Source: a bacterium | Lineage (GTDB): Bacteria > JACRDZ01 > JAQUKH01 | Length of the DNA: 64,000 bases | Direction: 5' to 3' | NCBI GenBank assembly: GCA_040754625.1 | Contig: JBFMCF010000083.1 | Coordinates: 5,604 to 69,603, forward strand | Shown here: piece after piece, positions 2,366 to 49,863 of the stretch | Layout: every line of letters begins with the position of its first letter | Position numbering within the stretch: position 1 is the first letter of the stretch | Made by a program: the position numbers and the translations under genes | The notes under the pieces: generated by a model | Told to the model about the DNA's origin: nothing | Database searches by the model: none | What the model saw: only the letters and a program-made list of their open reading frames with translations

Positions 2366-5300
2366 TCATTTAATCGGAACTATATTGTATTCTTTTATTT
2401 CTTCAAACTGCTGTTTTAGTTTTTCCCCGTGTTTTTCGGCGTCTTTCTTGTCATTAAAAAGCCCTGAACGTATAGTATACCATATCATTCCATTAATAAT
2501 GACTTTTTTAACATAGGCATAATTGCGTGAATCTGTCTTGTTGATTTTATCTGAAAAATTAGAAGCCCAGTCTTTGTTTTTGTCAGATGCCACTTCAATA
2601 GTCCATATCTGTTTAATTTTTTTAGGGGGGACATATACCAATTTGGTAATTTCTTCCTTTTTGGTTTCAGCGGATACCGGTTCCTTGTATACTCCGGTGT
2701 CAGTCATTTTCAAAGTTTCCGCTTTGGCTGTGGTGGTTTCCACTGGCTTTTCTTGTAAAAGACCCGCGGTTTTTTCTGTTAGAGGCAAAACCGGTTCTTT
2801 ACTGGTTTTAGATTCTTTTGCAGGGACTGTTTTAGCTGTCCCTGTTATTTCCATTGGTTCTATATTTACGGCGGCAGTTTCAGCAGGTTTTTGTTTTGAT
2901 GTTTCCGGTAGTTTAGGAACAACAGGCGCATATAACGGCTCTCCGGCCGTATCCTGTTTTTTATCCGGAACTGCAGTTGGTCCAGACGCAGTAGTATCTG
3001 TTTTTAAAGGAATAAGGGCCTGGGTAACCTTTTTGACAGCTTCAATGGGCAGGTTTATGACCTTCTGGGTGATATCAATGGTTTTTTCAGGTAAAGCAGC
3101 GGCCATTTCCAGACCCTTCGCAGGAAGCGAAGCCTCTGGAGGCGGTGTTTTAGTAGTATCGGGTGTTTTTTGAATAACAGTGGTGTCCGTTTTAGATGGA
3201 ATAATAGCCTGTGTAACTTTCTTGACAGCCTCAATGGGCAGGTTTATGACCTTCTGGGTGATATCAATGGTTTTTTCGGGCAGGCTGCTGACCGCCTCTT
3301 TTGTGGTTGTTATTCCCTCAGATACTTTTTGTAAAATAGAGGCCTTGGAGGGTGTGGGGACATTGAGAAAAATTTTCTTGCTGAATATATCGGAATAGTT
3401 TCCTACTTCATCCCGCAGCCAGAAATAAATTATTTTTTCGCCGTATCCTGGTGAGAGCGTATATTGAAATTCTGATTTTTTAGCCTCCCACCTGGCATTT
3501 TCAAAAAATGGGTTTTCGCTGACTTTTTGATAGTTATAATTTTCAAATTTGGTTTTAATAGTTATCTCCCGTGCTGTAGTTGTGTCCTGCGGCACTATTT
3601 CTATTTTTTCTGAATTTTGGATAAAATCTTTTGGCGGGGCAATATTTTCAATTTTAATATTGCTGACATATGAAATATTCCCGTTATCATCTTTAAATTT
3701 AAAATATATTGTTTTTTCTCCCAGGGGTTCCGAAAGATTAAAAGAAAATCTTTCGGAAAAAGGGACCCATGGACTATTTGAAAAATCAGGATCTTCTGAG
3801 GCCGTTAAATATTTTGCATTATAAGCGTAGATATATAAATTGACCCATGGAGTAAATGTAAAAATTTCTTCCATGGGTATTGTGGCTGTTATAATTGGAA
3901 AAATCGGGCTGTAAAAAAAGGAAGCCTTTGCCGTGGTTGATATATTATTGCCAGCCATGTCATATGCCTCGTTTATAACAATAATAATTTCTCCTGTCAT
4001 GTTTTCCTTCAGGATAACGGGAGGGGTAGTGTATGTGTCGTTTTGTATTATACTTGTGGAAAAAGTCCCTCCCGCGGGAATTTTTGGAGTATTTTCCCCC
4101 AATCCTATGAACGTAATTTGAGGATTACGGCTTATATCCATTGATTCGTTAAAAACACAGGAAAGTGTAAGAGAAGAGTTTTCAGGATTATACTGGAATT
4201 TGTAAAAGAGATTTTGAGGGCTGGTTTTGTCAACTATTACCTCGACCTTAAACGGCTCGGATATATTGCCGAACTGGTCTTGCAGCCTCAGATATATTTT
4301 TTTTCTTCCCTGTTCTTCAGAAAGAGGGAAAGGAGCAAAGTCGATATAACTTCTCCATAGATCTTCGGCAGTAGTATCAAGAATTTCATTCGTGCTTAGC
4401 ATAATAAACTCTGCGTCATCCGAGCTTATGATTAAATTGACCGTATTTTCCTTGGTATATTCTCTTTCCGCGGAAAAATTATTCAGGATCGGCGGGAACG
4501 TGTCTAACTGAAATGTTTCTTCTGAAATAATATCCATGATATTCCCCGCGAGGTCAGAAGCGTTTTTCACTACAATAGTTATTGCCCCGCCCATACCGGG
4601 TGATAAGCTGACAGGAGGAGTAGTATAAGTATCATTTTCCAGAGAGGTTGGTGTATTGCTTCTTGAAAAAGAACCTCCCTTGGAGACAAGGGGATTTTCT
4701 GTGCCGGTGCTGATTAGGATGACCTCGGGGATTATTGTTGTGTCGAGACTTTCATCAAAAATAACTGAGATTACTAAATCGCTGTTTAAAGTTACAGGAT
4801 TAGGATAGTTATACGAAATAACCGAGGGTTTTGTTAAATCCAGGTTGGTATTCAGTGTAACCGTTTTTGATATATTTCCTTCTTCATCGCGGACCCTGAT
4901 ATAGATTTGTTTTTGGCCGGACGCGGAAGATAAAACAAAAGGAGTATTGTTGGAATATTTAATCCATTTACTTTCCAGGAAAGAAGGATTTTCACTGATT
5001 TGCATTGAACTTGCTTTAATGGCACTCATTAAAATATGGATTTCTTTTTTATTGGTGTATACGCCTTCTTTTATAAGGGCGCTTTTTATTTCCGTGGGCA
5101 ATATATCGTAAATAAAACCTGTTAATGAAGCAGTTTGCATTTTATTTCCGGCTAAATCCGATACATTTTCTATCTCAAAATCAATATTTCCGGCGAGAGA
5201 ATCCTTTAAAGGTATGCTTGAACTGAAGTAAATGTTGTTAAATCCGTTTTCACTTGCGAAATAACCGCCTTGTTCAAGCACGGGTATTTTATCTTTATTA

Positions 5301-8300
5301 TTTATTACAAGGATTATTTTAGGTATTGTATTAATGTCCAGTGTTTCGGAAAAAATCAGTTTGATGCGGAATGACCGTAATGTTTTTATGTCTTCGGGAA
5401 GTATTGAATTAGTTATTTCGGGGGCGATGTTATCATAATTAATCATAAGTTTTTCCGGGTCTGAAATATTTCCCTCGCCGTCTTTAAAACGGACATAAAT
5501 TTGTTTATTGCCCGCGGGCCCGGATAAAGTAAAGGGAAGCAGTTCAGTGTATCTTATCCATTCAATATTCTCGAAGGAAGCATTTTCACTTATTTGAATT
5601 TCTGAGGCTTGAGGGTTATTTAAAATAATATTTATTTCTTTTTCCTTGGTAATTTCTCCATTTTCTATTCCAACGTTTGTTTTTAATTCGAAAGAGCCTA
5701 TTTTTGTCAACCCGATGGTATTTCCGGATAAATCCTGGATATTTTCTATAAATACCTCGTTTTCACCTGACATGGTTGTATCAAGGATTATGTCAGGAGT
5801 TGTGAGTATGTTATTTGAAAACTTGTTGTCTGAAAACGCCCAGTTATTATTTGATGTAACGGGATTTTTCCCGCCGCTTAAGTTTTTGATATAAAGTTTT
5901 GGCTCAATATACGGGTTTATCGGCTCATTTAATTCAAATTTTATGTGAAATTTAGGATTTATTCTTGCTGTCTTCGGGATAGAGACGCTTTCTATTTTTG
6001 GTTTTTGAGTATCTGTCAGTGCCAGCGCGGCTTCTGATTCGGACAAAATTGGAGCAGGGAGTATGGGTTTATATATTAATTGGCCCAGTGTCTCATCTGT
6101 ATTTTTATCGTAGAAATACAGTTCAATAAAGTTTGGTTTATCAGTACCCCACCAGTTATTCATTACATCTAAATCGTTATTAAAATTTTTTAAATAAAAG
6201 TTAAATTCTTTATTGTTAAAAATACTGTTATTTTGAATTAAAAATTTCCGGCTGAATTTCTCGCATAAAATACCGGTCTTATTGTCCCTGATTAGATTTT
6301 TAAAAATCAACGGAGAAGATTCTACCAGATAAATACCCTCATTTTTGTTTTTGGCTATTAGATTATTGACTAAGGCAGGAGAAGATAAAAAAGCTATTTT
6401 AAGACCAATATTCGTGTTTTCCATGATAGTATTATTGGCTATTTGGGGGGATGACCCTCTCTGGCAATTGATCCCGATTTCATTATTCATAATATAGTTA
6501 TTCATAATTGATGGAGAGGAGACATCATCGCAGAAAATCCCGGTTTTATTTTCAAATATTTCATTCTTAATGATGCTCCCGCTGGAGTTCAGCAATATGA
6601 TACCCTCATTTTTGTTATTTTCAATTTTTGATGATTCGATTTTCAACAATGAGTTATTAGCGGCGGAAACAGCAGTATTATTTTTAGAAAAAATAGAATT
6701 TGTTAAAACAGCCTTGGATTTATCCAGTGTTACAGCGATGTCTGCGAAATTGATTTTACAGAATTCAAAAATATTTTCCTGTACCCCTTTGATAATTATT
6801 CCTTTCCAGTCCCCTGTCTGGGGAGATGCCGATTGAATATCGAATTCTATTTCTTTATCTTTTTCTCCCCTGGCGATTAATTTGCCTTCAACAATTAACG
6901 CCGGTTTTTCCGTGACAGATATTTCTTTTTCATCAGCAACCTGCCGTTTTTTTAATTCAGAAAAAAGTAATTGGACGCCGGGTTGTATGGTTAACGTAAC
7001 ATCGCGCCCCACCGTAATTTCACCCCGCAGGTAATACGGGCTGTTTTCCCGGGTCAAAACCAGGTTGGTATCAATTATTTGAGGTAAATTTTGTTTCCCC
7101 TGGGGCAAAATAAAAGTACATATTTTGGTTACAGGAGCGGAAATGTTGCCGGCTGAATCTTTAAACTTAAAATATATAATTTTTTCTCCCTCGCTGCTGC
7201 TGAGGGGGAAGGTTTTTACAGGTTTAAAGGCCTGCCATTGAGAAGCCTTGAAAGTAACATCTTCTGTAATCATCATTTCTTCCGCTTCTGTTATATTGAA
7301 TTTAATATTTATCTGCGGGGAAAATGTAAAATTGCCTTCTTCGATAATTATACTGTCCGGTTTATCCAGGTTAAACCCTCTTTCGGGTTTCAGGATAAAA
7401 TTTTCTTCAGCCACTTTTTTTATTATGTTCCCTGCGGGATCGCGGGCGTCACTCACGACAATAGTGATTTCACCGGCCATGTTTTCGTCCAGTAAAATAT
7501 CAGGGGTTATATAAGTGTCGTTAGTTTGTGAAGTGCTTTTTATTTCACCGCCTTTTCCCACCAAAGGCGATACACGGCCATTGCCGATCAGGGTTATGAC
7601 AGGCGGGAAGTTAGTATCGATGGTTTTATTGAAAACCACTTTTATTTTAAATTCATTGCTTAATTTTACGGGTCTGGGATAAACATAAGAAATGATGTTT
7701 AACGGGGTGCTGTCTAAAGTTATATTCAAAAGCTGAGATGACGCAATCCTGCTCTTTTTGTCGGTTATGGTCATTTTTAAATTATTCTTGCCTTCTTTTA
7801 ATTTTATTATGCTTGAGAAACTTCCTTCTTTTACTTCTACCGGGAGAGAATCTTCGTTTAAAATTAATGTTGCTACCGTTAATGAAGTGTCGGAAATTGT
7901 GCCTTGAATGGTTTGTTCAGGATTATTTATTATCTGGTTATTGGCCAAAGATGTAATTTCAACAGTCAGGGGAATTTCTTCTTCATACCACTCAGACACA
8001 TATTCTGGTATTAAGGCCTGTGCTGATTCAAACGCAAGCAAAGTCATGATTTTTTTTACAGGAGATGTATGACATTCATTACAGATTTGATTGGCAGGGT
8101 TTTTTACTCTTAAAAAACTATTTTGGCCGTCCCCTTCTTCCTGGCTTATTATTTCGGCATTTGACGAGTCCCATTGATGGACATTATGGCATGTCGCGCA
8201 ACTCACTATGCCCAGGTCGAAATTAACAGCCGTCCCGGTATCAAAAAACGGTAATGGGAATACGGGCTTTTTTAATTGCGGCTTATTTTCCAATTGAAAA

Positions 8301-10882
8301 TAATTACTGTTATGGTGCCATTTATAATCTATAGATTTATTAGGGGCGATCCCCTCTTTTACATGGCAGGCAAAGCAGATCCCTGAAGCAGGGTCCGGGT
8401 TCGGGCCCCTGGGGGGTTTTGCCGATAAAAAAATGTTTATACTATTATGGACAAGATGGCACCCGGAGCATGGCCCGGATTCCAGGACGGTATTGTCCTG
8501 AATGTTTTTTTCAGCCGGGGCCTGAATGGATAAGTCGTGTTTTGTTCCCAAAACAGATTTTTCTTTAGGATGGCAGTCTAAACATAAAAAGGAGTTTTTG
8601 TTTGAAATTTTCAGGAAACTGTTTTCTCCTGTCCCTTTTACAATCTTTCCTTTTAAAAATAGGTTGACATCGATAATATAATCACCTTCATGGATGTCTG
8701 CTATAGTTTCAGGGGATAATATTTTTGCAAATGCTTTAAAAGTTTTAGCGTAAGGATTATATTTTTCTACTATTATTTTTGTTATTGTTACATTTTCTTC
8801 ATCAATAATTACAAATATCCTCCCGATTTCGGTATCATAATTTTCTTTAAGGTTTATATAAATATAATCTCCCTGGATAAAAGCAACTTCTCCAATATAG
8901 GCGAGGTCCACCTGCTCATCTGTAAATTTTTCTTTTTCGAGTTTTTTGATGTCCTCCCTGGTTGATTTTTGCAATTCGGTTTTTGTGAAATATTCAGGGT
9001 CCCACAGGTGTGGGTCATGACAGGTTAAACAGGTAATGAGCCCATTCCTGTCAACAATGCCGTCAGAGTTATAAAGCGGAAGACGAATGGGAATACTATT
9101 ATTTACCCGGATATTTATCCGGTGAGAAATTTCTTTAACAAGAGACTCCTTTGCTATGCCGTTTTCATTATGACAGCTTTGGCATAAATTGTTTTGCAGG
9201 ATGCCTTCTTTAGGTAATTCCCTGGCCCATTTTGTTGAATCGGACGCGTTGTGGATAAGGTGGCACGCGCTGCAGTTCCCGGAGGCCTCTATTTTATTAT
9301 TTTGTATATTTAAAGAGTAAGGGGCAATCCGGGTCATATCGTGATTGGAGTTTGCAATAACGCCCTCTTTTTTATGACAGTCGGAACAAAGTTCGCTGGA
9401 AAAATTTGCCGTTTTTCTTAAAAAACTGTTTTTACCGGTCCCTTCTTCTTCAGTTGCCTGGCCGCCTTCGGTATTTGACGGGTCCCATTGATGCACATTA
9501 TGGCAGGTCGCGCAGGTGATATTCCCGCTGACAAGTTTTATCCCGTCTTTCGTATATAAAGGTAAAGTTGAAGTTAAGTTAAGTGTTAAAATGGGGACAT
9601 TTATCGGGTGATAATAATTGCCGATAAGTTTGTTTTTTGCAATATCGTTTTCATTGTGACAACTGTAACACAAAGCTGAAATGACATCGTCCTTCGAGAT
9701 TATCGTTCTTGACCAGAGCTTTATATCATAGGCATTATGGACAAGATGGCAGCCCGCGCACGCACCTGTTTCCTGGACTTGCCCGGAAGGCTTATTCTCC
9801 GCGCCGGTGGATACCGCAGAAAGGTCGTGTTTTGTCCCGATTACCGCCTTTTCTTCAGGATGGCATTCTATACACAGCTCGGTCTGCTTGTTTTCCATGC
9901 GCAAAAAATTTTTTTTGTCGAAATGAGGGTCATGACACGTGGTACAGGAAAGTGTATTGTTTTTTGACAAGGTCAGTCTTTTTTGGGTTTGAGGCGTAGA
10001 TACAAGATTTATATCTACAGGATGATATATTTCCCCGATTTGTTTTTTAGAGGCGCATTTGTTGTCAGCGTGGCATGTGGCGCATAAAAGTGTGGCGGTT
10101 TTTTCTTTTTCCGGGTCCAGCGGTTTTGACCAGAGCATGAAGCTGTTCCCGTTATGTACCGAATGGCAGGCCCCGCAGATACCGGACTCTTCCGCTGTTT
10201 TTCCCAATATGTTTTTTTCACCGGGCGCGGAATTGACCAGATTATGAGAAGTGTTTATTAACTTGTCTTTATCGGGATGACAGGTTAAACATAAAATTGG
10301 TTTTCCTTTTTGAGACACAATGGTTGTGGTTTCCGGCGCACTATGGATGATATGGCAGGCGGGACATCCCTTTGTTTTTGAGGCGGTTTCCTTTTCATCT
10401 TTTTGTTTAAAAAGATGGGTAACCGCGACCTCGCCTGCTTTGTTAACATGACAGCTCTGGCAAAGAGATTCAAGCGGTATCCGGAAAAAACCGGGTTCCT
10501 CGACCTTCTTTTTTGATATTCCATGGGGCCGGTGGCATGTCCCGCAGTAGATTTTTTTGTCTTTAGTCAGCGGGAGGTTTTCCGATATATTAGTTTGCGG
10601 AGATTGTTTTGTTATTATTGTATGGCCTTTGGCAATAATAGAATTTCTTGAGTCGCTTACTGAACCGTCGTGGCATGTATAACACATTTTCATATCGGAA
10701 GATAATATGTCCTGCTTTTCGATCAGGGAATTATCTTTTGTTAAGCGTTCAATATGGCACAGGGCGCATTCTATTTCTATCTCTTTGGATTTTTCAGCCC
10801 ATGCATTGGAACAGGTAAACAAGAAAAATAAAATAAATATAATTTTTTTCACCCAGCTCTTCCTTTTTTCGTTAATGTCCAA
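2366..10882 (-). CDS. Giant secreted multiheme c-type cytochrome (2838 aa, about 22 CxxCH) with parallel beta-helix, repeated Ig-like modules, Pro/Thr/Lys-rich linker and C-terminal SPOR-like peptidoglycan-binding domain. The track start is TTG at 10882; an in-frame GTG at about 10852 preceded by AGGAAGAG gives a more canonical signal peptide MKKIIFILFFLFTCSNAWA.
   Basis: 22 CxxCH motifs counted in the first ~935 residues (CALCH, CYTCH, CGTCH, CQSCH, CPACH, CLTCH x2, CGACH, CATCH x3, CTTCH, CIECH, CAGCH, CYSCH, CSDCH, CSACH, CQSCH, CLDCH, CSGCH, CFACH, CNECH). Hydrophobic signal peptide. PbH1-like N/I/S-rich repeats. Six copies of a ~45-aa module ending G-x-K-IY-x-RF-KD-x-x-GN-I-S. C-terminal YAYVKKVIINGMIWYTIRSGLFNDKKDAEKHGEKL resembles SPOR. 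Confidence 0.85.
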   Translation of the reverse strand: MDINEKRKSWVKKIIFILFFLFTCSNAWAEKSKEIEIECALCHIERLTKDNSLIEKQDILSSDMKMCYTCHDGSVSDSRNSIIAKGHTIITKQSPQTNISENLPLTKDKKIYCGTCHRPHGISKKKVEEPGFFRIPLESLCQSCHVNKAGEVAVTHLFKQKDEKETASKTKGCPACHIIHSAPETTTIVSQKGKPILCLTCHPDKDKLINTSHNLVNSAPGEKNILGKTAEESGICGACHSVHNGNSFMLWSKPLDPEKEKTATLLCATCHADNKCASKKQIGEIYHPVDINLVSTPQTQKRLTLSKNNTLSCTTCHDPHFDKKNFLRMENKQTELCIECHPEEKAVIGTKHDLSAVSTGAENKPSGQVQETGACAGCHLVHNAYDIKLWSRTIISKDDVISALCYSCHNENDIAKNKLIGNYYHPINVPILTLNLTSTLPLYTKDGIKLVSGNITCATCHNVHQWDPSNTEGGQATEEEGTGKNSFLRKTANFSSELCSDCHKKEGVIANSNHDMTRIAPYSLNIQNNKIEASGNCSACHLIHNASDSTKWARELPKEGILQNNLCQSCHNENGIAKESLVKEISHRINIRVNNSIPIRLPLYNSDGIVDRNGLITCLTCHDPHLWDPEYFTKTELQKSTREDIKKLEKEKFTDEQVDLAYIGEVAFIQGDYIYINLKENYDTEIGRIFVIIDEENVTITKIIVEKYNPYAKTFKAFAKILSPETIADIHEGDYIIDVNLFLKGKIVKGTGENSFLKISNKNSFLCLDCHPKEKSVLGTKHDLSIQAPAEKNIQDNTVLESGPCSGCHLVHNSINIFLSAKPPRGPNPDPASGICFACHVKEGIAPNKSIDYKWHHNSNYFQLENKPQLKKPVFPLPFFDTGTAVNFDLGIVSCATCHNVHQWDSSNAEIISQEEGDGQNSFLRVKNPANQICNECHTSPVKKIMTLLAFESAQALIPEYVSEWYEEEIPLTVEITSLANNQIINNPEQTIQGTISDTSLTVATLILNEDSLPVEVKEGSFSSIIKLKEGKNNLKMTITDKKSRIASSQLLNITLDSTPLNIISYVYPRPVKLSNEFKIKVVFNKTIDTNFPPVITLIGNGRVSPLVGKGGEIKSTSQTNDTYITPDILLDENMAGEITIVVSDARDPAGNIIKKVAEENFILKPERGFNLDKPDSIIIEEGNFTFSPQINIKFNITEAEEMMITEDVTFKASQWQAFKPVKTFPLSSSEGEKIIYFKFKDSAGNISAPVTKICTFILPQGKQNLPQIIDTNLVLTRENSPYYLRGEITVGRDVTLTIQPGVQLLFSELKKRQVADEKEISVTEKPALIVEGKLIARGEKDKEIEFDIQSASPQTGDWKGIIIKGVQENIFEFCKINFADIAVTLDKSKAVLTNSIFSKNNTAVSAANNSLLKIESSKIENNKNEGIILLNSSGSIIKNEIFENKTGIFCDDVSSPSIMNNYIMNNEIGINCQRGSSPQIANNTIMENTNIGLKIAFLSSPALVNNLIAKNKNEGIYLVESSPLIFKNLIRDNKTGILCEKFSRKFLIQNNSIFNNKEFNFYLKNFNNDLDVMNNWWGTDKPNFIELYFYDKNTDETLGQLIYKPILPAPILSESEAALALTDTQKPKIESVSIPKTARINPKFHIKFELNEPINPYIEPKLYIKNLSGGKNPVTSNNNWAFSDNKFSNNILTTPDIILDTTMSGENEVFIENIQDLSGNTIGLTKIGSFELKTNVGIENGEITKEKEINIILNNPQASEIQISENASFENIEWIRYTELLPFTLSGPAGNKQIYVRFKDGEGNISDPEKLMINYDNIAPEITNSILPEDIKTLRSFRIKLIFSETLDINTIPKIILVINNKDKIPVLEQGGYFASENGFNNIYFSSSIPLKDSLAGNIDFEIENVSDLAGNKMQTASLTGFIYDILPTEIKSALIKEGVYTNKKEIHILMSAIKASSMQISENPSFLESKWIKYSNNTPFVLSSASGQKQIYIRVRDEEGNISKTVTLNTNLDLTKPSVISYNYPNPVTLNSDLVISVIFDESLDTTIIPEVILISTGTENPLVSKGGSFSRSNTPTSLENDTYTTPPVSLSPGMGGAITIVVKNASDLAGNIMDIISEETFQLDTFPPILNNFSAEREYTKENTVNLIISSDDAEFIMLSTNEILDTTAEDLWRSYIDFAPFPLSEEQGRKKIYLRLQDQFGNISEPFKVEVIVDKTSPQNLFYKFQYNPENSSLTLSCVFNESMDISRNPQITFIGLGENTPKIPAGGTFSTSIIQNDTYTTPPVILKENMTGEIIIVINEAYDMAGNNISTTAKASFFYSPIFPIITATIPMEEIFTFTPWVNLYIYAYNAKYLTASEDPDFSNSPWVPFSERFSFNLSEPLGEKTIYFKFKDDNGNISYVSNIKIENIAPPKDFIQNSEKIEIVPQDTTTAREITIKTKFENYNYQKVSENPFFENARWEAKKSEFQYTLSPGYGEKIIYFWLRDEVGNYSDIFSKKIFLNVPTPSKASILQKVSEGITTTKEAVSSLPEKTIDITQKVINLPIEAVKKVTQAIIPSKTDTTVIQKTPDTTKTPPPEASLPAKGLEMAAALPEKTIDITQKVINLPIEAVKKVTQALIPLKTDTTASGPTAVPDKKQDTAGEPLYAPVVPKLPETSKQKPAETAAVNIEPMEITGTAKTVPAKESKTSKEPVLPLTEKTAGLLQEKPVETTTAKAETLKMTDTGVYKEPVSAETKKEEITKLVYVPPKKIKQIWTIEVASDKNKDWASNFSDKINKTDSRNYAYVKKVIINGMIWYTIRSGLFNDKKDAEKHGEKLKQQFEEIKEYNIVPIK
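2369..2600 (-). other. C-terminal SPOR-like (septal peptidoglycan-binding) domain of the 2838-aa cytochrome.
   Basis: Last ~75 aa: WTIEVASDKNKDWASNFSDKI...YAYVKKVIINGMIWYTIRSGLFNDKKDAEKHGEKLKQQF. The alternating hydrophobic pattern and length match SPOR domains. Confidence 0.5.
3010..3294. repeat. Two about 97-bp direct repeats (3010-3106 and 3198-3294, period 189 bp, ~90% identical, 47-bp perfect core) inside the C-terminal linker of the 2838-aa cytochrome. They encode the duplicated peptide LPEKTIDITQKVINLPIEAVKKVTQA.
   Basis: Identical string tcaatgggcaggtttatgaccttctgggtgatatcaatggttttttc occurs at 3042-3088 and 3231-3277. Confidence 0.85.
6125..7040 (-). other. Right-handed parallel beta-helix (PbH1-like) repeat domain inside the 2838-aa cytochrome.
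   Basis: Recurrent 22-25 aa N/I/S-rich units (NNSIFNNKEF, NNTIMENTNIGLKIA, NNLIAKNKNEGIYL and similar) ending NNWWGTDKPNF. Confidence 0.55.
8067..10770 (-). other. Heme-binding region of the 2838-aa cytochrome (about 22 CxxCH motifs, interrupted by one ~120-aa non-heme insert).
   Basis: CxxCH motifs located directly in the translation. The last one, CNECH, maps to about 8067-8084. Confidence 0.8.
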
Positions 10883-11025
10883 ACTAACTGATTTTACCCA
10901 ATCCTTCCTTTTTATTCATTCAGGAAGGGCTGGGTTCATTTGTTATATATTATACCATAAAGTAATTTAAAGATTATCCTTCAAGCAGGGACATAAAAAA
11001 ATAATAAAAAAGTAATGTAAAATAT

Positions 11026-11121: not shown

Positions 11122-12132
11122 ATGGCTGAATTAAATAGAATTTTGGTTTTGGCTGGCGTGATAATTTTTTCTTCTCTGGCGTATTCGCAGGAAACAACGA
11201 CCGTTTTGGATACAACTATTCGGAAACTGGACACTGCAAAAGCAGAACCGTCTCTTCCCGTAAAATGCACACAGGTTATTAATATCGGATATCGTATAGG
11301 GGGCCTGGCTGTTGATTCCAAAGGTAACTATTATGTAAATGGGGGGCGGGGTATAAACGCTGTTACAATTTTTAACCCGATGGGAGAGAAAACAGGAGAT
11401 TTTATTTTGCAGGATGCCCAGATTCCTCCGCCTTCTGAAAACCAGTCGTCGATTAGAGGAATTGATATCGATCTTAATGAGAATATTTACCTTTGTAACG
11501 CAGGTTATAAGACAGTAGAGAAATTTACAAAAATAGGAGATTTTCTTAAAAAGATTTCCCTGCCTGTAAGCCCGAAACCGGAGTGGAATTATGCGCTTGG
11601 AGGTGTGGTTGTTGATGAAGAGGGTACCATCTATGTTGCCGCATACACCAAAATTATATATATTTTTGACAAAGAAGGAAATTTTTTAAGACAGTGGGTA
11701 AAATCGGATAAGGAGAAAGACCAATATGGTTATGTAAGGGCATTGGCGATTGACCGTTATAAAACCTCCAAGCTAAAAAGGATTTATGTGGGCGATGATT
11801 ATACTAACAGAGTTTATGTGTTCACTAAAAAGGAAAGAAAATTACTTTTTTCTTTGGGAAGCCGCGGTTCTAGTCCGGGTGAAATGCTGGATATTACTGA
11901 TTTAGATGTTGACAGTGACGGCAATATTTTTGTGTTGGACCGGGGGATGGGGTATTGTTCGGTTTTTAACAATGAAGGTAAGTTTCTTTTTAGATTCGGC
12001 CAGGGCGATAAATCGGGAGAAAAAAATTTAGCTTTCCCACTGGGTATTTTTATTGACCAGAAGAATAAAATACACATTTCTAATACTGAAAAAGGAAATA
12101 TTTTGGTTTGGGAATGGAGAAAAGATAAATAG
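11122..12132 (+). CDS. Secreted NHL-repeat beta-propeller protein.
   Basis: Signal peptide MAELNRILVLAGVIIFSSLAYSQ. Repeated NHL-like blades (YVGDDYTNRVYVF, IFVLDRGMGYCSVFNNEGKF, IYLCNAGYKTVEKF). First gene of the plus-strand cytochrome operon. Confidence 0.75.
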   Translation: MAELNRILVLAGVIIFSSLAYSQETTTVLDTTIRKLDTAKAEPSLPVKCTQVINIGYRIGGLAVDSKGNYYVNGGRGINAVTIFNPMGEKTGDFILQDAQIPPPSENQSSIRGIDIDLNENIYLCNAGYKTVEKFTKIGDFLKKISLPVSPKPEWNYALGGVVVDEEGTIYVAAYTKIIYIFDKEGNFLRQWVKSDKEKDQYGYVRALAIDRYKTSKLKRIYVGDDYTNRVYVFTKKERKLLFSLGSRGSSPGEMLDITDLDVDSDGNIFVLDRGMGYCSVFNNEGKFLFRFGQGDKSGEKNLAFPLGIFIDQKNKIHISNTEKGNILVWEWRKDK

Positions 12133-12154: not shown

Positions 12155-15100
12155 ATGTTTAAAAAAAGCATATTTTATTTAACGTTTTTTGTTGTTTTAA
12201 GTTTATTTTTTATATTTGGAGAAAAAATATTTGCAAAAGGCCCGCATACTAATGAGTCCACATATACCGGAACAGAATTAGCCGGTGTATGCGCGGCATG
12301 CCATGTGCCTCACAAGGCGGTGGGGGACAGGTTATGGCCGGTGGGTTTAACAGATACAACAGGCAAAACAACTATTCAGAACTTATGCACATATTGCCAT
12401 TGGCAGACAGAGCTCGATGCTGACCAGGATAGTACGGGTACTTTTTATCTGGGAAAATATCAAGCCCACATTTTAGGCCGGGCGCATGGCAGACACGGTA
12501 TAGCTTATAAAGATTCTACAGGTGCGTATGAAAGTCCGATAATAAGACGTTACGGCCCGGGGCATTTATACCGCAGCAGTACAATTACAAGGGATGGAGA
12601 TGCCGTTATGGGATATGAGAGCCTGGGATATCCCGATTTCGAATCAATCGCGGTTTATGCTGATCCTGATACTACGAACAATGATAGTGTATCGGTATTG
12701 CCTCGTCTGTCCTGTACGTCCTGCCATGACCCGCACGCTGAATACCTTGCCGGAAATTACAGAGACAGACAGGGAGCGCAGGAAACTTATGAGTCCGCGG
12801 CTGATAATTACATCTTGAATATTGTCGGAGATTATGAACCGCTTTCTACGACTTATTATTCTGCGAGTGTATTTGGCAGGACGAGATCGGTGTGCATAGC
12901 CTGCCATGGGACATCCGGGAGGCCGTCAGGAACAGTAATAGACGGGTTAACCCCTCCTCTTCCTCCTCCCTCAATGGGAGACCATAGATTAGGTTCAATA
13001 TCGAAATGTACGGGATGTCATGCATGGGACTGGCCGCCTGCCAATTGCGACCAATGTCACGGCCCGAGCGGGCCAAGTGTTAAAAAAGACGACCATTATC
13101 CGCAGGATTATTATAATAATACCACTTATACAGCTTTTACAATAAGAGGAATTGGGGCTCATGACACCCATGTCAAAGGTGAAGAATATGCCTGTATGAT
13201 GTGCCATCCCAGTCCAACCGATACAACTCATAATAATGGTATAGTAAACGTGGTATTTAATACGGATTATATTTATATTGACGGGACTACTTATGTTACC
13301 GCGGCAATCGGTTTCCCGGGCGGAACGAAAATTAGAGACACTGATACCTGTAAAGTTACAGGGACGGGCGAAACAAAAGATATCAGATGTATAGTTGCAT
13401 GCCATGATCCCGTTCTCGGCGGGGTAGTCGATAACACCACTGAGGTTTTGTGGCCTACGGTCGCAGTAGGAGAAATAGGGAATCCTTATGCGACAGCGAG
13501 TATTATCAACCTGGACAGCCTTTATACAATTCTTTCCTGTATTTCCTGCCATGAAGCAGTCGGCAATATTTTTAAGATATCCAGCGCTTCGGATTCCTCA
13601 GCCCATCCTTTTATAACAGCGTCTGTTATTACGGAAAGAAACTCTTGTGAAATTTGCCACAGGGACCACCAGTGGGTAACATATAATACCACTAAATCCA
13701 GATGGATGGGAAAAAGTGACCCCTATACGCTTTGTGACACCGTAAGATATCATACCCATACCAGCAGGTTCGATTCAAGTTCTGATGTATTTAATAAATA
13801 TGGAAATACAACATCAACTTTTGAATGGAACCCGTTTGTATTTAATTCAACGGATGCAAGAGGTTTTAAAAATCCCTCGATAGCGGACTATTCAAATGCG
13901 GAAACAGTATTGTATCGTTTTCCTACACGGTTTGGGACCACAAGTTATTATAATACGGTTTATAATATATATAACGAGGGTTATAATACGGTTGGAATAT
14001 GTGACCCATGTCATGACAGGACCCCGTTTGAGATACTTTACGGGACTGCGATTCGCCATGATACCACTGTTGAGCCGAAAAATTTAGGGTCTACTTATTA
14101 TTTCAGAGGGCCCAAGGCAGCCGCGTTTTTTTACGAAAGCGCCCTGTACGATTCTGGCGGGATACTCGGGACTACCGGGATCGGGGGACACGGACAGAGT
14201 TTAACCCAGGTAAGTAATCATAGAATGGGCGATTCGAGGCTGCCCGGTGTTGTTGATGAACAACGGGTGAAATGCCGGAGCTGCCATCTCTATCATGGTT
14301 CCATGATACCCAAAATACTTGATACGGCGGCAAACCGGCCGCCGGATGTATATGCCACAACCGGAGCCCCGGGGGCCCTGGCGTATGCTACGACAGGAAA
14401 TGATAATAAGTTTTGTTACCGCTGTCATTTTTTTGTATATGATAATGGTTTTTATTCTTCAACAATGTATGAATCATCAATACACGGCGATACAACGCAG
14501 CCTAACTTTATAATATGGTCTGATACCACCAGGATTGGGCCTTACGCGCCTTCAAACGGGCATCCTGAAAGTTATTACTGGAAACCCCCGAAAGGAGACA
14601 CTACTTACAGGCGGGGTCTTTGTATTTATTGTCATGAGCCTCACGGCGGTTACGGCTGGGACACTAATGTATTCGATACACCGGGATTTTCAAGTTTTAC
14701 GCGCGCAGGGACGAGAGGATCGCGCGTTTTCGGAGAGAGATATGGAACCGCGGTAAACCTTGGAGATGAAATCCTTTGTTTTAAATGCCATACTTTTGAT
14801 TCAACATGGAATGTATTCGGGGAAACCGTGTGGTCAACCCCTTATTATGCCGGCAAGGTTTATAATGCGAAAGACTGGTATGATAAGGGTGATACTACGG
14901 TCAAGAATATAAGCGAATACTTTGATACTTCAAATGGAGGCAGCCGTCATCGTGTTCACAGGAATGAACAGGACACTACGCTTGGCAACACTGATTATCT
15001 GATAATCGAATGCATTAACTGTCATAACCCGCATACAGTCAGGAAAGATACTACACATGACAGTGTGGTAACAAACCTGATGTATCCTTTCAAGCCTTCT

Positions 15101-16099
15101 GAATTTATATATGATACCGCGGTAACGGACAGCACAAGGGAATACAAAGTTTATAATAAATTCTGCCTTGTCTGTCATGATTCAGGCAGTGAGGTTAATT
15201 CAGACAGCGGTATGATTTATTTAGACAGTTCCCTTGATACATTATGGGGAAAACTTCCAAGGGGGATAAAATTTTCAAAAAAAGTCTATTGGGGTGAAGG
15301 AGATACATCATCCCCGGATGATACTACCCGTTTCCACAGCTGGAACAAAGAAAAATACTATAATTCAACCGGGCATGGTGTGGATTCCACCCTGAATATT
15401 GGCGCCGATTATGAAACTGACCGGCTGCCGATGGCCAGGCGCGGATCATACGGCATGTCCTGCGCCAGGATAGATGAATTTGCATGTCATGACCCGCATG
15501 GGAACACCACCAATATATCTCTTTTAAAAACTGATGTTAAGCACCCGGCTGGGTTTAATTATAATACCCCGCATATTTATGATACGAGTTATAATCCAGC
15601 AGATGAGCCGAAGACTGTTGACAGATGGTGCGCGGCGGCATGCCACCAGATAGGAATAAGAACAGGTGAAAGAGATTGGTCCCATGCCTATACATATGTC
15701 CGAAAAACGAGTGACGGCCCCTGGGACAGCGGGATATATGATTATGGGACGGACAGCAGAAAAGACATTGATATATATGACACGGGAGGGACCAATGAAC
15801 CGGGGATGGATAATTCAGCGGATAAAAATCAGGATACTTCCACTTCCTGGATGCATTCTTCTTTTAACAGGGTGCCGGGAGACGGCAATAACTGGCCTGA
15901 TGAATCCCAGTGGGGATATGATACCAATTACAAGAATAATTTGCCGGCAAAATCAGATGCCGGGAGGCGTTTTGTGTGTTTTACATGTCATGACCCGCAT
16001 GGGACAAAAAATCATGGAATGATAAGATATAAATTTAATGATGATACGACTGATCCGAACAGCAATGAATTATGCACGAGGTGCCACAAGTATCAATAA
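12155..16099 (+). CDS. Large secreted multiheme c-type cytochrome (1314 aa, about 19 CxxCH plus 2 CxxxCH).
   Basis: N-terminal hydrophobic segment. Motifs CAACH, CTYCH, CTSCH, CIACH, CTGCH, CDQCH, CMMCH, CIVACH, CISCH, CEICH, CDPCH, CRSCH, CYRCH, CIYCH, CFKCH, CINCH, CLVCH, CAAACH, CFTCH, CTRCH. Thr/Tyr/Asp/Asn-rich composition. Confidence 0.85.
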   Translation: MFKKSIFYLTFFVVLSLFFIFGEKIFAKGPHTNESTYTGTELAGVCAACHVPHKAVGDRLWPVGLTDTTGKTTIQNLCTYCHWQTELDADQDSTGTFYLGKYQAHILGRAHGRHGIAYKDSTGAYESPIIRRYGPGHLYRSSTITRDGDAVMGYESLGYPDFESIAVYADPDTTNNDSVSVLPRLSCTSCHDPHAEYLAGNYRDRQGAQETYESAADNYILNIVGDYEPLSTTYYSASVFGRTRSVCIACHGTSGRPSGTVIDGLTPPLPPPSMGDHRLGSISKCTGCHAWDWPPANCDQCHGPSGPSVKKDDHYPQDYYNNTTYTAFTIRGIGAHDTHVKGEEYACMMCHPSPTDTTHNNGIVNVVFNTDYIYIDGTTYVTAAIGFPGGTKIRDTDTCKVTGTGETKDIRCIVACHDPVLGGVVDNTTEVLWPTVAVGEIGNPYATASIINLDSLYTILSCISCHEAVGNIFKISSASDSSAHPFITASVITERNSCEICHRDHQWVTYNTTKSRWMGKSDPYTLCDTVRYHTHTSRFDSSSDVFNKYGNTTSTFEWNPFVFNSTDARGFKNPSIADYSNAETVLYRFPTRFGTTSYYNTVYNIYNEGYNTVGICDPCHDRTPFEILYGTAIRHDTTVEPKNLGSTYYFRGPKAAAFFYESALYDSGGILGTTGIGGHGQSLTQVSNHRMGDSRLPGVVDEQRVKCRSCHLYHGSMIPKILDTAANRPPDVYATTGAPGALAYATTGNDNKFCYRCHFFVYDNGFYSSTMYESSIHGDTTQPNFIIWSDTTRIGPYAPSNGHPESYYWKPPKGDTTYRRGLCIYCHEPHGGYGWDTNVFDTPGFSSFTRAGTRGSRVFGERYGTAVNLGDEILCFKCHTFDSTWNVFGETVWSTPYYAGKVYNAKDWYDKGDTTVKNISEYFDTSNGGSRHRVHRNEQDTTLGNTDYLIIECINCHNPHTVRKDTTHDSVVTNLMYPFKPSEFIYDTAVTDSTREYKVYNKFCLVCHDSGSEVNSDSGMIYLDSSLDTLWGKLPRGIKFSKKVYWGEGDTSSPDDTTRFHSWNKEKYYNSTGHGVDSTLNIGADYETDRLPMARRGSYGMSCARIDEFACHDPHGNTTNISLLKTDVKHPAGFNYNTPHIYDTSYNPADEPKTVDRWCAAACHQIGIRTGERDWSHAYTYVRKTSDGPWDSGIYDYGTDSRKDIDIYDTGGTNEPGMDNSADKNQDTSTSWMHSSFNRVPGDGNNWPDESQWGYDTNYKNNLPAKSDAGRRFVCFTCHDPHGTKNHGMIRYKFNDDTTDPNSNELCTRCHKYQ

Positions 16100-16171
16100 G
16101 CACGGGCATGAATAATTTTTTATGAAACTTCCCAATAATGTTTTAGGTATATCTGGTTGGATGAGGGGAAA

Positions 16172-19117
16172 ATGAGAGATAACAAAAAGTTGTTTATACC
16201 TATAATAATATTTTTGGCAGCAATCGGTATTTACAATTTCAGCTGTATAAAATATGTATTCGGATATGCGTATGACACAACTCAGAGTAAAAATTGCGCC
16301 GGCTGTCACAGCATAAGAAAATCAAAGGCAAAAACCGGCACATGGGCCATAAGAAGTGATGTAATCAGAATAGTGGACAGCACTGAAGATTTTAACTATG
16401 ACAGATGGTCATGTGATATCTGCCACAGGGACAAGAGAAGTAATTTTGGAGACCTTGAAACCGCGTCCGCGAAACTGCCTTCCGCGCATCCTGTCCCGGT
16501 CAAGGGAATGGAGAAAGACAAATTGTTGAATGACGGGAAAAAGGTTATGTATTGCACGAGTTGTCATGATCCGCTCCAGGTGGACAGGGGAGTCCATTCC
16601 ACTTATGTCAGTATTTTCAGGTTAAAATTCAGCGGTCTTGACAGCTCAGGAGTGCGCCATTATGACCCTGACCCCGTAGATGATACAGTTGCAGTCGGAG
16701 TTGATTCAACTTCATGGTTCTGGGAAAACCCGTTTGATACCTCTGATTCCACATTTAAAGGTTTCCTGAAATTCGGTAAAATCAATCATTATCAAACTGC
16801 AAGCGGCGGTGTTTTTGATCCAAAAAATGCAAGGGCCGGCAGGGAACTGGCTGATTTTTACCGGGCGACAGAAACTACAAATGACGACAAGTTATCGCAA
16901 ACGCAGACAATATATTTTTGTATAACCTGCCATGACAGCAACGGTTTCCCGCTCGATCCGATGAATACTACTCTTAGTGTTGACGACTCAACCGAGAACA
17001 GGGTAAGGCCCCCTGGATTTATTGGCGGGGGTGTCAGTTATAATAATTCAGACGGGAACAAGACTAAATGGACCGAGTCGGACGGCGGCCATGTAATCCA
17101 GGCTGAAAGTACTAAAACAGGCCTGAACGTGGGAGACAGGCTCCCGTGTATCGATTGCCATGACAGTCACTCTTCGTCATCAAACAGAAAACTGATCAAA
17201 GAAGGTTTAGCGATAGGAAAAGGTGAAGATTTTTTTGCGAGAGATTTATGTCTCGCCTGCCATAATACAGGTGTTTCCAACCGTTATTACCCGTCAGGCG
17301 CTTTTACTAAATATGGAGAGACTGTGGCAACGTCAATGCTGCCAAAAGAAGATACCGCCCGGGTGGCGGGTGATCCTGATTTACAAAATTACCATTCCCA
17401 GACTTACGCAAAGACATGTTATGGTTATGTTGATGAAAGTGATAAATATGGTGTTTATTCAGGATGCCACAGAGATCCCCACACGCCTACAATGTTTTGC
17501 GCCGGCTGCCATAAGGACCATTTTGAAGCATATGGAGCTATGACAAGAAAAAGCCATCCTGTCGGAATTGATATAGATTTGTTTACTAAGCCTGTCGGAG
17601 ATTCACTTAGCATTAATGAGTATTACCATTTATATGCCGATACTATGGAAGTCCCGTTGTTTAATAACAGGATTGAATGCCTGACCTGTCATAATGACCA
17701 CCCGAAGTCCGGAGATTCAGCTTTTGCCCCGCAGATGCAGGGCCTGCTCCGCGGGGACGCGGGTATAGACATTACAGCTAATCTTGATAGTGTAAAACTA
17801 GGGATAGGAAATAATTATAAAAATCATAATTCCAATCAGAATACGGTATTAAAAAACCTGGCGCTGAGTTCAGGACAGGGTATTACCGCGGGCCAGTTTG
17901 ACAGCCTCCGGTCCATGCCGGAACTTTGTATTAACTGCCATTATCGTATTATAGGAGTTGATAATGACCATGGCGGATTTGACGGCGGCGGTTTCGGGAT
18001 GTGTGATAAATGCCACAGCATGCACGGGCAGCATTCGGAACCCGACAGCGCGGACATCCCGATAGATTCCAGTAACGTAATAAGGCCCCTGCACTATGGA
18101 ATGTATATAGCTTATGATCAGTTACCGTCACCCAGTGAATTAGCGGCCGCTGTGAAATATCAAAAGGTTGTGGTTGAATGGGACACTTCCGGTTCGCACG
18201 CGATAGATACGATAGATGTCTACCAGGATGTCGGGACGGGAAAGAAATTTTCCAGCCAGCAAAATGAACATTTGCTTCATGAGAAGTTACAGGAAAAGCT
18301 GTGTGAAAGGTGCCATGGAAATTCCAATTGGCCGGCGCTCGTGGAAACTTCTGCTACCCAGCCGCCGCCGCCGCAGATTTTCTTTGACTCGGCCGGAAGC
18401 AGGGAAGACACCGCGGATGTTTATTTTACTACAACCCAGATTAATATTCTCTACAAAAACAAAAGTACTCATCCTGTAGATATTAAGGGCAGGGTTGTCC
18501 CGGGCAGCGGTTACAGTGTAGCCACCGATTTAAGATGCAGTTCAGGGACGAAATACTCAGGCTGTCATACCCCGCACGGGAATGATAACTACGCCCAGTT
18601 AAATGTGATGACTGCCATCGGGAACACGGATAACCAGAGCAAATCTATTTACGGGATTGCCGAAGTTTTATATACGTCAGCAGGAACTAAAGCAAAATAT
18701 GTAAGCGGCATGCATGAATTCTGCGGTTTATGCCATGACAGGTTTGCCGGTAATATAAAGGTTGATTCCGTATATACCCGGCACCCGGTGGGTCCCGGTG
18801 TAAGCTTATTAAATCTTTATCCTGCGGCGTCTGAAAGAGCGCAGCTTGGGCTTGATACCGCTTTTATAAGTTTTTTTGATAGTTTGATTCTGGATTATGA
18901 TACAAATGACTATCCCGGCGGCCGGCCTAATTTTGATTCTTTTCTTGCGGTTTCTGATACATCGAGGACTTTAATAGCGCAGAAAAATTTTATAATGAGC
19001 TGTATTACTTGTCACCGCCAGCACGGCTCGAATTATTTGCATTTGAGAAAATTTAACGACAGGGCTGTTTACGAATGTGTAAATTGCCATAGTAAATCTC
19101 CGGATATTTTAGAATAG
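16172..19117 (+). CDS. Large secreted multiheme c-type cytochrome (about 981 aa from ATG at 16172, about 14-16 heme motifs). The track start at 16157 is TTG; ATG at 16172 is preceded by a GAGGGG Shine-Dalgarno sequence.
   Basis: Motifs CAGCH x2, CDICH, CTSCH, CITCH x2, CIDCH, CLACH, CLTCH, CINCH, CDKCH, CERCH, CGLCH, CVNCH plus SGCH-type variants. N-terminal TM/signal LFIPIIIFLAAIGIYNF. Confidence 0.85.
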   Translation: MRDNKKLFIPIIIFLAAIGIYNFSCIKYVFGYAYDTTQSKNCAGCHSIRKSKAKTGTWAIRSDVIRIVDSTEDFNYDRWSCDICHRDKRSNFGDLETASAKLPSAHPVPVKGMEKDKLLNDGKKVMYCTSCHDPLQVDRGVHSTYVSIFRLKFSGLDSSGVRHYDPDPVDDTVAVGVDSTSWFWENPFDTSDSTFKGFLKFGKINHYQTASGGVFDPKNARAGRELADFYRATETTNDDKLSQTQTIYFCITCHDSNGFPLDPMNTTLSVDDSTENRVRPPGFIGGGVSYNNSDGNKTKWTESDGGHVIQAESTKTGLNVGDRLPCIDCHDSHSSSSNRKLIKEGLAIGKGEDFFARDLCLACHNTGVSNRYYPSGAFTKYGETVATSMLPKEDTARVAGDPDLQNYHSQTYAKTCYGYVDESDKYGVYSGCHRDPHTPTMFCAGCHKDHFEAYGAMTRKSHPVGIDIDLFTKPVGDSLSINEYYHLYADTMEVPLFNNRIECLTCHNDHPKSGDSAFAPQMQGLLRGDAGIDITANLDSVKLGIGNNYKNHNSNQNTVLKNLALSSGQGITAGQFDSLRSMPELCINCHYRIIGVDNDHGGFDGGGFGMCDKCHSMHGQHSEPDSADIPIDSSNVIRPLHYGMYIAYDQLPSPSELAAAVKYQKVVVEWDTSGSHAIDTIDVYQDVGTGKKFSSQQNEHLLHEKLQEKLCERCHGNSNWPALVETSATQPPPPQIFFDSAGSREDTADVYFTTTQINILYKNKSTHPVDIKGRVVPGSGYSVATDLRCSSGTKYSGCHTPHGNDNYAQLNVMTAIGNTDNQSKSIYGIAEVLYTSAGTKAKYVSGMHEFCGLCHDRFAGNIKVDSVYTRHPVGPGVSLLNLYPAASERAQLGLDTAFISFFDSLILDYDTNDYPGGRPNFDSFLAVSDTSRTLIAQKNFIMSCITCHRQHGSNYLHLRKFNDRAVYECVNCHSKSPDILE

Positions 19118-19140
19118 CTTTTTTTTAGGGGGAATTAAAA

Positions 19141-35808: not shown

Positions 35809-35837
35809 AATTATATTGTGAAACAAAAAAAAAGAAA

Positions 35838-35848
35838 AAATGGTATAA
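35838..35848 (+). promoter_or_regulatory. Extended -10 element (TGGTATAAT) immediately downstream of the 5555-aa ORF stop, upstream of the FN3/TPR protein gene.
   Basis: aaaaatggtataatttagtgaggtataatgtaATGAAA. A GAGGT Shine-Dalgarno sequence lies 9 nt before ATG at 35868. Confidence 0.3.
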
Positions 35849-35867
35849 TTTAGTGAGGTATAATGTA

Positions 35868-49781: not shown

Positions 49782-49807
49782 TTCAATATCCCAAACCCCT
49801 CTTTATC

Positions 49808-49855
49808 TCCCCTTATCAGGGGAGAAATTATGAACTATCCCCCTGATAAGGGGGA
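49808..49855 (-). terminator. Intergenic inverted repeat (14-15 bp stem, 16-nt loop) between two co-oriented minus-strand genes. Possible terminator or RNA-processing hairpin, but it lacks a clear U-tract.
   Basis: ctccccttatcagggg ... cccctgataaggggg are reverse complements. Confidence 0.35.
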
Positions 49856-49863
49856 TATGGGGG

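Follow-up and report, generated by a model that had tools for sequence, protein, structure and literature searches.

The window analysed here is a bacterial DNA stretch of 64,000 nucleotides (contig JBFMCF010000083.1 of assembly GCA_040754625.1, positions 5,604 to 69,603), which carries on its reverse strand the gene for a giant multiheme cytochrome with a SPOR-like domain at its C-terminus. The gene fills a single unbroken open reading frame (ORF) at window positions 2366 to 10882, and its product is referred to below as the cytochrome-SPOR protein. Counted from a TTG codon the frame comprises 2838 codons, and residue numbers follow this count. The true product is probably the 2828-residue protein starting from the GTG at 10852 (codon 10850-10852), because a Shine-Dalgarno (SD)-like AAAGGAAGAG lies 7 nt 5' of this codon and the orthologue in locus L001 starts at the equivalent methionine, with an in-frame stop just upstream of it. 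The 2828-residue product is identical to the NCBI protein P0001, automatically annotated as 'cytochrome c3 family protein', and SPOR is part of its precomputed Pfam list. The following parts were distinguished in the gene:

2366..10882, reverse strand: whole ORF, giant multiheme cytochrome with SPOR-like C-terminus (ORF reading)
10796..10852, reverse strand: predicted Sec-type signal peptide, MKKIIFILFFLFTCSNAWA followed by EK, aa 1-29 (inspection of the sequence)
8069..10768, reverse strand: heme module with 22 CXXCH, aa 39-938; hemes 1-17 at aa 39-622 and hemes 18-22 at aa 767-938 (motif count and Pfam)
8633..8965, reverse strand: heme-free insert of ~110 aa between hemes 17 and 18, aa ~640-750
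7712..7960, reverse strand: Ig-like module, Big_13 / Glucodextran_B, aa 975-1057 (Pfam)
7133..7684, reverse strand: first A-B beta-sandwich pair, A1 at aa 1067-1163 and B1 at aa 1182-1250
6083..7075, reverse strand: right-handed parallel beta-helix, Beta_helix/NosD, aa ~1270-1600 (Pfam)
3386..5983, reverse strand: beta-sandwich modules A2-B2, A3-B3, A4-B4, A5-B5 and B6, aa 1634-2499
2618..3355, reverse strand: low-complexity linker, aa 2510-2755 (composition)
2369..2608, reverse strand: SPOR-like domain, aa 2759-2838 (Pfam and predicted structure)

The same architecture, SPOR included, was found in the orthologues P0002 (68% identity) and P0003 (65%) and in the fragments P0022 and P0023. Its conservation up to the C-terminal domain in these independent metagenomic sequences argues against a chance arrangement, and an artefact of gene fusion or assembly was rejected since independent assemblies contain the same architecture. 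With one intact ORF, Pfam matches and a recurring domain order, the original prediction of a multiheme cytochrome joined to a beta-helix, Ig-like modules and a SPOR-like end was confirmed.

The C-terminal domain truly belongs to the SPOR family and shares its fold, but its binding face has been remodelled. In the whole protein, SPOR PF05036 matched aa 2759-2825 with 29.1 bits (cut-off 21), and the isolated C-termini of the five orthologues, the window protein among them, scored 34.5, 24.6, 29.4, 31.3 and 24.5 bits against the same cut-off. The structure prediction gave a ribonucleoprotein (RNP)-like β-α-β-β-α-β fold with a four-stranded antiparallel sheet and two helices, as had been anticipated from the sequence. 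The disposition of a low-complexity stretch followed by a terminal SPOR domain also corresponds to the usual layout of SPOR proteins, in which the linker is disordered (PMC6895207). When 1.84 billion representative proteins were searched exhaustively with a profile, only 18 matched at E<=1e-3, namely the orthologues, two proteins combining SPOR repeats with a secretin N-domain, and ordinary SPOR-repeat proteins; no relatives were detected in a metagenome scan with the SPOR alignment. The two SPOR-secretin proteins, P0024 (823 aa) and P0025 (503 aa), are the nearest non-orthologous relatives of the domain. Their three to five tandem SPOR repeats are joined N-terminally to a secretin-like protein (GspD/PilQ N-domain), which is an unusual architecture. 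OrfX1 and VanP appeared among the PDB matches of the SPOR-alignment profile, but these weak and partly spurious matches were not relied on.

At the opposite end of the protein, the predicted signal peptide carries an A-x-A-like cleavage site ahead of 'EK' that is kept in the orthologues. It also contains a conserved Cys at a non-canonical lipobox-like position. A lipoprotein attached through this Cys was judged unlikely, given the residues at position -1 (T/I/I) and the A-x-A-type site downstream. The 22 hemes of the original prediction were recovered exactly, as 22 CXXCH motifs that all fall within aa 39-938. A motif scan of the cytochrome-SPOR protein detected neither CX3-4CH nor CXXCK. Residues 1-960 contain exactly 44 His, so that bis-His ligation is possible for every heme, and all 22 hemes are probably ligated in this way. 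The Pfam matches included Paired_CXXCH_1 (1.1e-36), Cytochrome_C7 (2.9e-23), MtrC/MtrF domains II/IV (4.9e-22) and Cytochrom_c3_2; with multiheme families matched at E-values from 1e-36 to 1e-19, many CXXCH motifs, candidate distal ligands and a predicted secretion signal, the protein has the features of a multiheme c-type cytochrome. The heme-free insert is kept in all full-length family members, with G664, N709, P710, F718, A719, G733 and D734 invariant. No Pfam family was assigned to this insert, a Big_8 match at E 0.046 being disregarded.

The heme module is followed by a long stalk. Iterated hidden Markov models (HMMs) built from the cytochrome-SPOR protein and run on itself defined five 'A' modules (~97 aa) and six 'B' modules (~69 aa). 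Together with the Big_13 module, twelve beta-sandwich modules were counted, three before the beta-helix and nine after it; the earlier description of Ig-like arrays was hence correct in kind, but not in its number of six nor in placing all of them behind the beta-helix. The A-B modules were modelled as confident beta-sandwiches with the S-layer protein SbsC as closest match, a likeness which at ~14% identity is that of generic beta-sandwiches, CopC, PKD and FN3 domains scoring nearly as well. The beta-helix matched Beta_helix PF13229 with 63.9 bits (cut-off 25.9, E 1.7e-17) and NosD PF05048 with 49.6 bits (cut-off 23.6, E 4.4e-13). It is the best-conserved non-heme part of the family and contains many invariant N/G/I positions. 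The linker of 246 aa is rich in T (38), K (35), P (27), A (24) and E (23) and bears an internal duplication of 63 aa, seen in the DNA as a dispersed repeat of 103 nt (2989-3091 and 3178-3280, 87% identity); Tandem Repeats Finder reported no tandem repeats in the gene. In P0002 and P0003 the linker is far shorter, and such variation in length fits a spacer role.

The SPOR fusion is rare and confined to a small clade. Among 162 loci encoding cytochrome relatives (L001-L162, 2.4 Mb), a SPOR HMM applied to every stop-to-stop ORF matched only the two orthologous loci L001 and L003, besides the window itself when it was included. The fusion is thus present at three loci and in the two protein fragments, and at none of the 160 other loci with related cytochromes. 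Distant full-length relatives with 31-35% identity (P0005-7, P0010, P0012, P0009 and P0011 and others from Ca. Desantisbacteria, and proteins from a few further metagenome-assembled genomes, MAGs) share the heme module, the heme-free insert, the A/B modules and the beta-helix and are devoid of linker and SPOR. Several of these MAGs hold two or three paralogues. By itself, the heme module (aa ~14-940) is found widely, at 27-36% identity, in 18-28-heme cytochromes, usually 18-heme proteins, of MAGs from Gammaproteobacteria (Sideroxydans, Thiohalophilus, Sedimenticola, Arenicellales), Desulfocapsa/Desulfobulbaceae and Nitrospirae; a metagenome scan with the full-length alignment likewise returned heme-module relatives only and no full-length orthologues. 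The SPOR-less core of the distant relatives and the wide distribution of the heme module indicate that a cytochrome gained stalk, linker and anchor, and not the reverse. The suggestion that an S-layer or adhesin scaffold had acquired an electron-transfer head was therefore unsupported. Homologues in which an SLH or LysM domain takes the place of SPOR, which had been proposed as a check, were not found either: neither the cytochrome-SPOR protein nor the precomputed Pfam lists of the homologues P0002-P0016 and P0019-P0021 contain SLH, LysM or an S-layer anchor, and no other wall-binding Pfam domain takes the place of SPOR in these homologues.

Two relatives deserve a remark of their own. P0009 (locus L010, Ca. 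Desantisbacteria JACQWU010000228.1) continues in frame into a C-terminal CTP synthase and bears the NCBI name 'CTP synthase, partial'; this fusion probably results from a frameshift or from faulty assembly or gene calling. The MAG that encodes P0002 holds SPOR-bearing and SPOR-less family members alike. At its locus L009 (2474-9858), the gene of a paralogue that combines 37 CXXCH with a beta-helix at the C-terminus is broken into overlapping ORFs of 963 and 1498 aa, through either a frameshift or a sequencing error.

The cytochrome-SPOR gene belongs to an island in which divergently transcribed genes encode an NHL propeller, further giant cytochromes and ResB. The surrounding features were the following:

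310-1395, reverse strand: radical S-adenosylmethionine (SAM)/SPASM enzyme, downstream of the cytochrome-SPOR gene on the same strand as the glycosyltransferase
1401-2303, reverse strand: glycosyltransferase of family 2 (GT2), directly downstream of the cytochrome-SPOR gene
10897..10954, reverse strand: 5' leader of the cytochrome-SPOR gene with a TATAAT -10 box (10949-10954) and a 17-bp interrupted hairpin (10897-10934, -19.7 kcal/mol)
11122..12132, forward strand: secreted six-bladed NHL beta-propeller, divergent from the cytochrome-SPOR gene
12155..39881, forward strand: rest of the island with three further cytochromes and a Big_1/TPR protein
19141-35808, forward strand: ORF of 5555 aa with 42 CXXCH (and two CX3-4CH) and four Laminin_G_3 (concanavalin-like lectin) domains
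40250..41560, forward strand: ResB/CcsB-like protein of cytochrome c maturation system II

The three further cytochromes comprise 1314 aa (18 CXXCH), 986 aa (14 CXXCH) and 5555 aa, the last being among the largest bacterial multiheme cytochromes known to us, and the Big_1/TPR protein has 1342 aa. Including the cytochrome-SPOR protein, the four cytochromes contain 96 CXXCH motifs. The WWD motif of CcsA was not detected in the 64-kb window. The gene order NHL, cytochrome-SPOR, GT2, radical SAM is conserved in L001 (GT2 and radical SAM at 8822-10799), and the start of the GT2 gene overlaps the stop codon of the cytochrome gene. L003 encodes a more distant radical SAM/SPASM homologue in convergent orientation (phmmer E 1e-16, in comparison to 7e-192 for L001). 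Judged from their position and families, the GT2 and radical SAM/SPASM enzymes may modify or glycosylate the Thr-rich linker. An NHL homologue was present in 138 of the 162 loci with heme-module relatives, often directly upstream of an 18-heme cytochrome of ~790 aa, and the pair looks like a widespread and tightly linked unit in sulfur- and iron-cycling bacteria. The 5' leader is almost identical in DNA to that of L003 (~225-375), although the coding regions share only 68% amino acid identity. Its hairpin arms CCCAGCCCTTCC...GGAAGGATTGGG lie just 5' of the SD-like sequence, and the leader may be a regulatory RNA element; Rfam gave no match anywhere in the window, leader included.

Further along the window, three consecutive membrane proteins are encoded at 48444-53571 on the reverse strand, two of them with the Pfam family PMT_2 (protein O-mannosyltransferase-like) and with a CarboxypepD_reg lipoprotein between the first and the second; from their family assignment they may represent machinery that glycosylates secreted proteins rich in Ser/Thr. 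At the far end, an overlapping two-gene unit (62260-63766, forward strand) is unrelated to the cytochrome-SPOR gene. Its first gene resembles an AbiEi family type IV toxin-antitoxin antitoxin with an NCBIfam match (E 8e-08, 32.2 bits) below the cut-off of 150.

Several described systems resemble parts of this arrangement. The Uet electron-uptake cluster includes genes for NHL, undecaheme, CcsAB and TPR proteins, and PCC3 includes periplasm-spanning cytochromes of Gallionellaceae with 21-27 hemes; both are proposed systems for extracellular electron transfer. Compared by description with Uet of Ca. Tenderia/Gallionella and with PCC3, the window and L001 likewise have an NHL gene adjoining the cytochrome, and a Sideroxydans MAG encodes a stand-alone 22-heme homologue of 981 aa beside NHL, an 11-heme cytochrome and CcsB/CcsA-like genes. 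We propose on sequence grounds that the heme module belongs among these NHL-associated, putative extracellular electron-transfer cytochromes. In contrast to Uet and PCC3, the cytochrome-SPOR protein is about three times longer owing to its fused beta-helix, twelve beta-sandwich modules, linker and SPOR, and no porin family was matched near it in the window. By architecture, the closest functional analogues appear to be the giant multiheme cytochromes (MHCs) of the anaerobic methanotrophic (ANME) archaea ANME-2/3, known as ANME MHC-A/B/C, which are fused to S-layer and pectin-lyase-like domains, have a dedicated maturation gene alongside and, according to the proposal made for them, would conduct electrons across the outermost layer of the wall. 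Common to both is a giant cytochrome with an envelope-integration domain and/or a right-handed beta-helix and with an adjacent cytochrome-maturation gene. The ANME proteins are archaeal, however, and are anchored by an S-layer domain and a C-terminal transmembrane helix instead of a peptidoglycan-binding domain. Among Gram-positive metal reducers, the c-type cytochromes TherJR_1122/OcwA of Thermincola potens and OmhA of Carboxydothermus ferrireducens are wall-associated and relay electrons outward (PMC7829351). The concept is alike, but these cytochromes carry 6-11 hemes, lack SPOR and were assigned to the wall by prediction or by fractionation. The canonical SPOR proteins FtsN, DamX, DedD, RlpA and CwlC differ in their cargo, which is a divisome or wall-cleaving module instead of a cytochrome and scaffold of 2,700 aa, and the cytochrome-SPOR protein has neither a transmembrane nor a lipid anchor. 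In the literature searched, multiheme cytochromes and SPOR domains were nowhere mentioned together.

We regard the chances as about even that the cytochrome-SPOR protein is a secreted, envelope-tethered electron-transfer cytochrome whose C-terminus is held non-covalently on wall glycan. The protein would be exported by the Sec route and would then receive its covalently attached hemes, with the ResB/CcsB gene being part of the same island. Its N-terminal 22-heme module would serve as an electron conduit or store with low-spin hemes, the direction and the substrate of electron flow being conjectural, and might work together with the products of the divergent neighbouring genes, the NHL propeller and three further giant cytochromes. 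The beta-helix and the twelve beta-sandwich modules could form a rigid scaffold of the S-layer or adhesin type, and the presumably disordered Thr/Lys/Pro-rich linker with the SPOR-like domain would fasten the C-terminus to cell-wall glycan. Consistent with this picture are the 22 CXXCH with their 44 His, the confident beta-sandwich models closest to SbsC, the island of NHL, multiheme cytochrome and ResB genes, the NHL homologues at 138 of 162 related loci together with the proposed Uet and PCC3 systems, the layout of linker and terminal SPOR, the synteny in L001, and the analogous ANME fusions.

Among the observations to be set against such a tether are those on the binding face of the SPOR-like domain. 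In crystal structures of RlpA with glycan, Q270 makes the sole highly conserved side-chain contact and binds the lactyl carboxylate of N-acetylmuramic acid (NAM) and the acetyl group of N-acetylglucosamine (NAG); its equivalent in DamX is Q351 on strand β1 (PMC6895207). Binding further depends critically on a basic patch of the sheet, exemplified by FtsN R285 and RlpA R302/R309/R311 (PMC6895207). These positions were compared in a profile alignment of 39 SPOR repeats, comprising the five cytochrome orthologues and 34 others. The contact Gln is absent from the orthologues, with Glu in the window protein, P0002, P0022 and P0023 and Lys in P0003, and it is present in 26 of the 34 other repeats; three of the 34 have a gap there. 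In accordance, the phmmer alignment to DamX pairs the Gln of YTLQL with the Glu of WTIEVAS. The Trp of the W-Y-[RK]-V motif occurs in three orthologues and is replaced by Cys in two (24 of the 34 others have W), and two residues after it, at the position of FtsN R285, all five orthologues have Thr where R or K is usual. An Arg stands two residues beyond that Thr in three of the five, two invariant Lys precede the strand, and the Ser position of SPOR is retained. A Glu in place of the Gln should repel the lactyl carboxylate of NAM that is exposed on denuded glycan, and with Glu or Lys replacing Gln and Thr replacing the basic residue, peptidoglycan binding is not assured.

Other points add to this weight. 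The confidence of the SPOR model was moderate (pLDDT 70, from an alignment of three sequences), and searches by sequence alone matched solved SPOR structures weakly (E 0.011 for the DamX SPOR, and 0.61). Estimated from typical domain sizes, the extended molecule would measure several tens of nanometres and exceed a typical periplasm. The heme head would then lie far from the anchor on a non-heme stalk that cannot conduct, leaving the route of electrons to the head unexplained. Two arrangements are conceivable, one with the molecule running along the sacculus and one with the peptidoglycan of the organism exposed; if exposed, the layout would mimic that of Gram-positive surface proteins with head, stalk, P/T-rich wall-spanning region and wall anchor. 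The window, L003 and L009 yielded no marker of an outer membrane or of a monoderm envelope, and neither a type II secretion system nor another export route was seen in the window. Compared in order to place the organism taxonomically, the protein YifB shared 87% identity with proteins of MAGs that carry no lineage name and only 64-65% with those of named Edwardsbacteria, KSB1 and Thermodesulfobacteriota MAGs. Porin families gave no match among the scanned ORFs of at least 150 aa around the island, and divergent porins often escape Pfam.

The altered residues bear most directly on the septal targeting put forward in the original prediction. A canonical SPOR domain would recognize denuded septal glycan and concentrate the cytochrome at septa or cell-cell junctions, for instance for transfer between the cells of a filament. 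Pfam membership and fold agree with this, most SPOR-glycan contacts are made by backbone atoms of the conserved fold (PMC6895207), and the Ser and, in part of the orthologues, the Trp are kept. What speaks against it is that every orthologue has exchanged both the contact Gln and the basic residue that follows the Trp and that the lactyl carboxylate is expected to be repelled; the window, moreover, contains no sign of a filamentous lifestyle or of a link to division. We therefore consider this explanation improbable, and specific targeting to the septum or to denuded glycan, as far as the residues tell, unlikely and unsupported. Because the canonical Gln and Arg are replaced, a tether by the SPOR-like domain would probably involve non-canonical binding of wall glycan. 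The same losses and the variable Trp would also suit a SPOR fold that does not bind peptidoglycan but contacts a partner protein or some other polymer of the envelope, or simply caps the linker, while the beta-helix and Ig modules attach the protein to the surface. Carbohydrate binding is typical of beta-helix domains of the CASH/pectin-lyase-like type and has been discussed in this sense for ANME MHC-C, and the SPOR-less relatives P0005-7 and P0011, which end in a beta-helix or in Ig modules, work without such a domain. On the other hand, the domain is 57-62% identical in three orthologues (whole proteins 65-68%) despite very unequal linkers, which argues for a selected binding function, and its nearest non-orthologous relatives are ordinary SPOR repeats. 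We rate a SPOR fold without peptidoglycan binding as possible but rather doubtful.

An enzymatic beta-helix was weighed as well, in a protein that would not be an electron conduit. The beta-helix would act as a lyase or hydrolase on polysaccharides or as a metallochaperone of the NosD kind, the hemes would deliver or withdraw electrons for a reaction that modifies the wall or matrix, and SPOR would bring the protein close to its substrate as in RlpA and CwlC. These best-characterised SPOR enzymes indeed cleave the wall, the NosD and Beta_helix matches were significant, and no other non-heme part is conserved as well as the beta-helix. No catalytic family was matched, though (Pect-lyase_RHGA_epim reached 15 bits, below its cut-off); the 22 probably bis-His hemes far exceed the needs of a catalytic redox partner, and the neighbouring genes encode giant cytochromes and an NHL propeller and not wall-remodelling proteins. 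We give this possibility little credence. A more far-reaching version of the envelope-tethered cytochrome, which we likewise hold at a low probability, assumes that the SPOR variant has been retuned to another wall glycan, for example a secondary wall polymer or peptidoglycan made positively charged by de-N-acetylation, and that the four cytochromes with their 96 hemes form a conductive layer on a peptidoglycan-anchored, S-layer-like scaffold. In a sub-variant this layer would be concentrated at septa and would couple neighbouring cells electrically. For the C-terminal domain itself, a SPOR-like wall-binding module was accepted as the working reading.

To our knowledge, only the porin-cytochrome complexes of Gram-negative model organisms have shown in detail how electrons from respiration pass the cell wall; what is known for Gram-positive bacteria and archaea comes mostly from genomes, in the form of cytochromes fused to wall or S-layer modules. 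The cytochrome-SPOR fusion is rare and bears on this wall-crossing; it introduces no new principle, and its altered residues weaken the case for wall binding. The protein itself is already deposited (P0001) and the theme of envelope-fused giant cytochromes is known, to which the SPOR fusion adds a new variation. As a multiheme cytochrome with a domain of peptidoglycan-binding type, it would offer a direct and readily testable genomic example of a putative wall-tethered electron carrier in bacteria, and its natural exchange of Gln for Glu or Lys would allow the determinants of SPOR ligand specificity to be tested. If the conductive layer on a retuned SPOR anchor proved true, it would represent a bacterial route for electrons across or along the cell wall that is independent of porin-cytochrome complexes.

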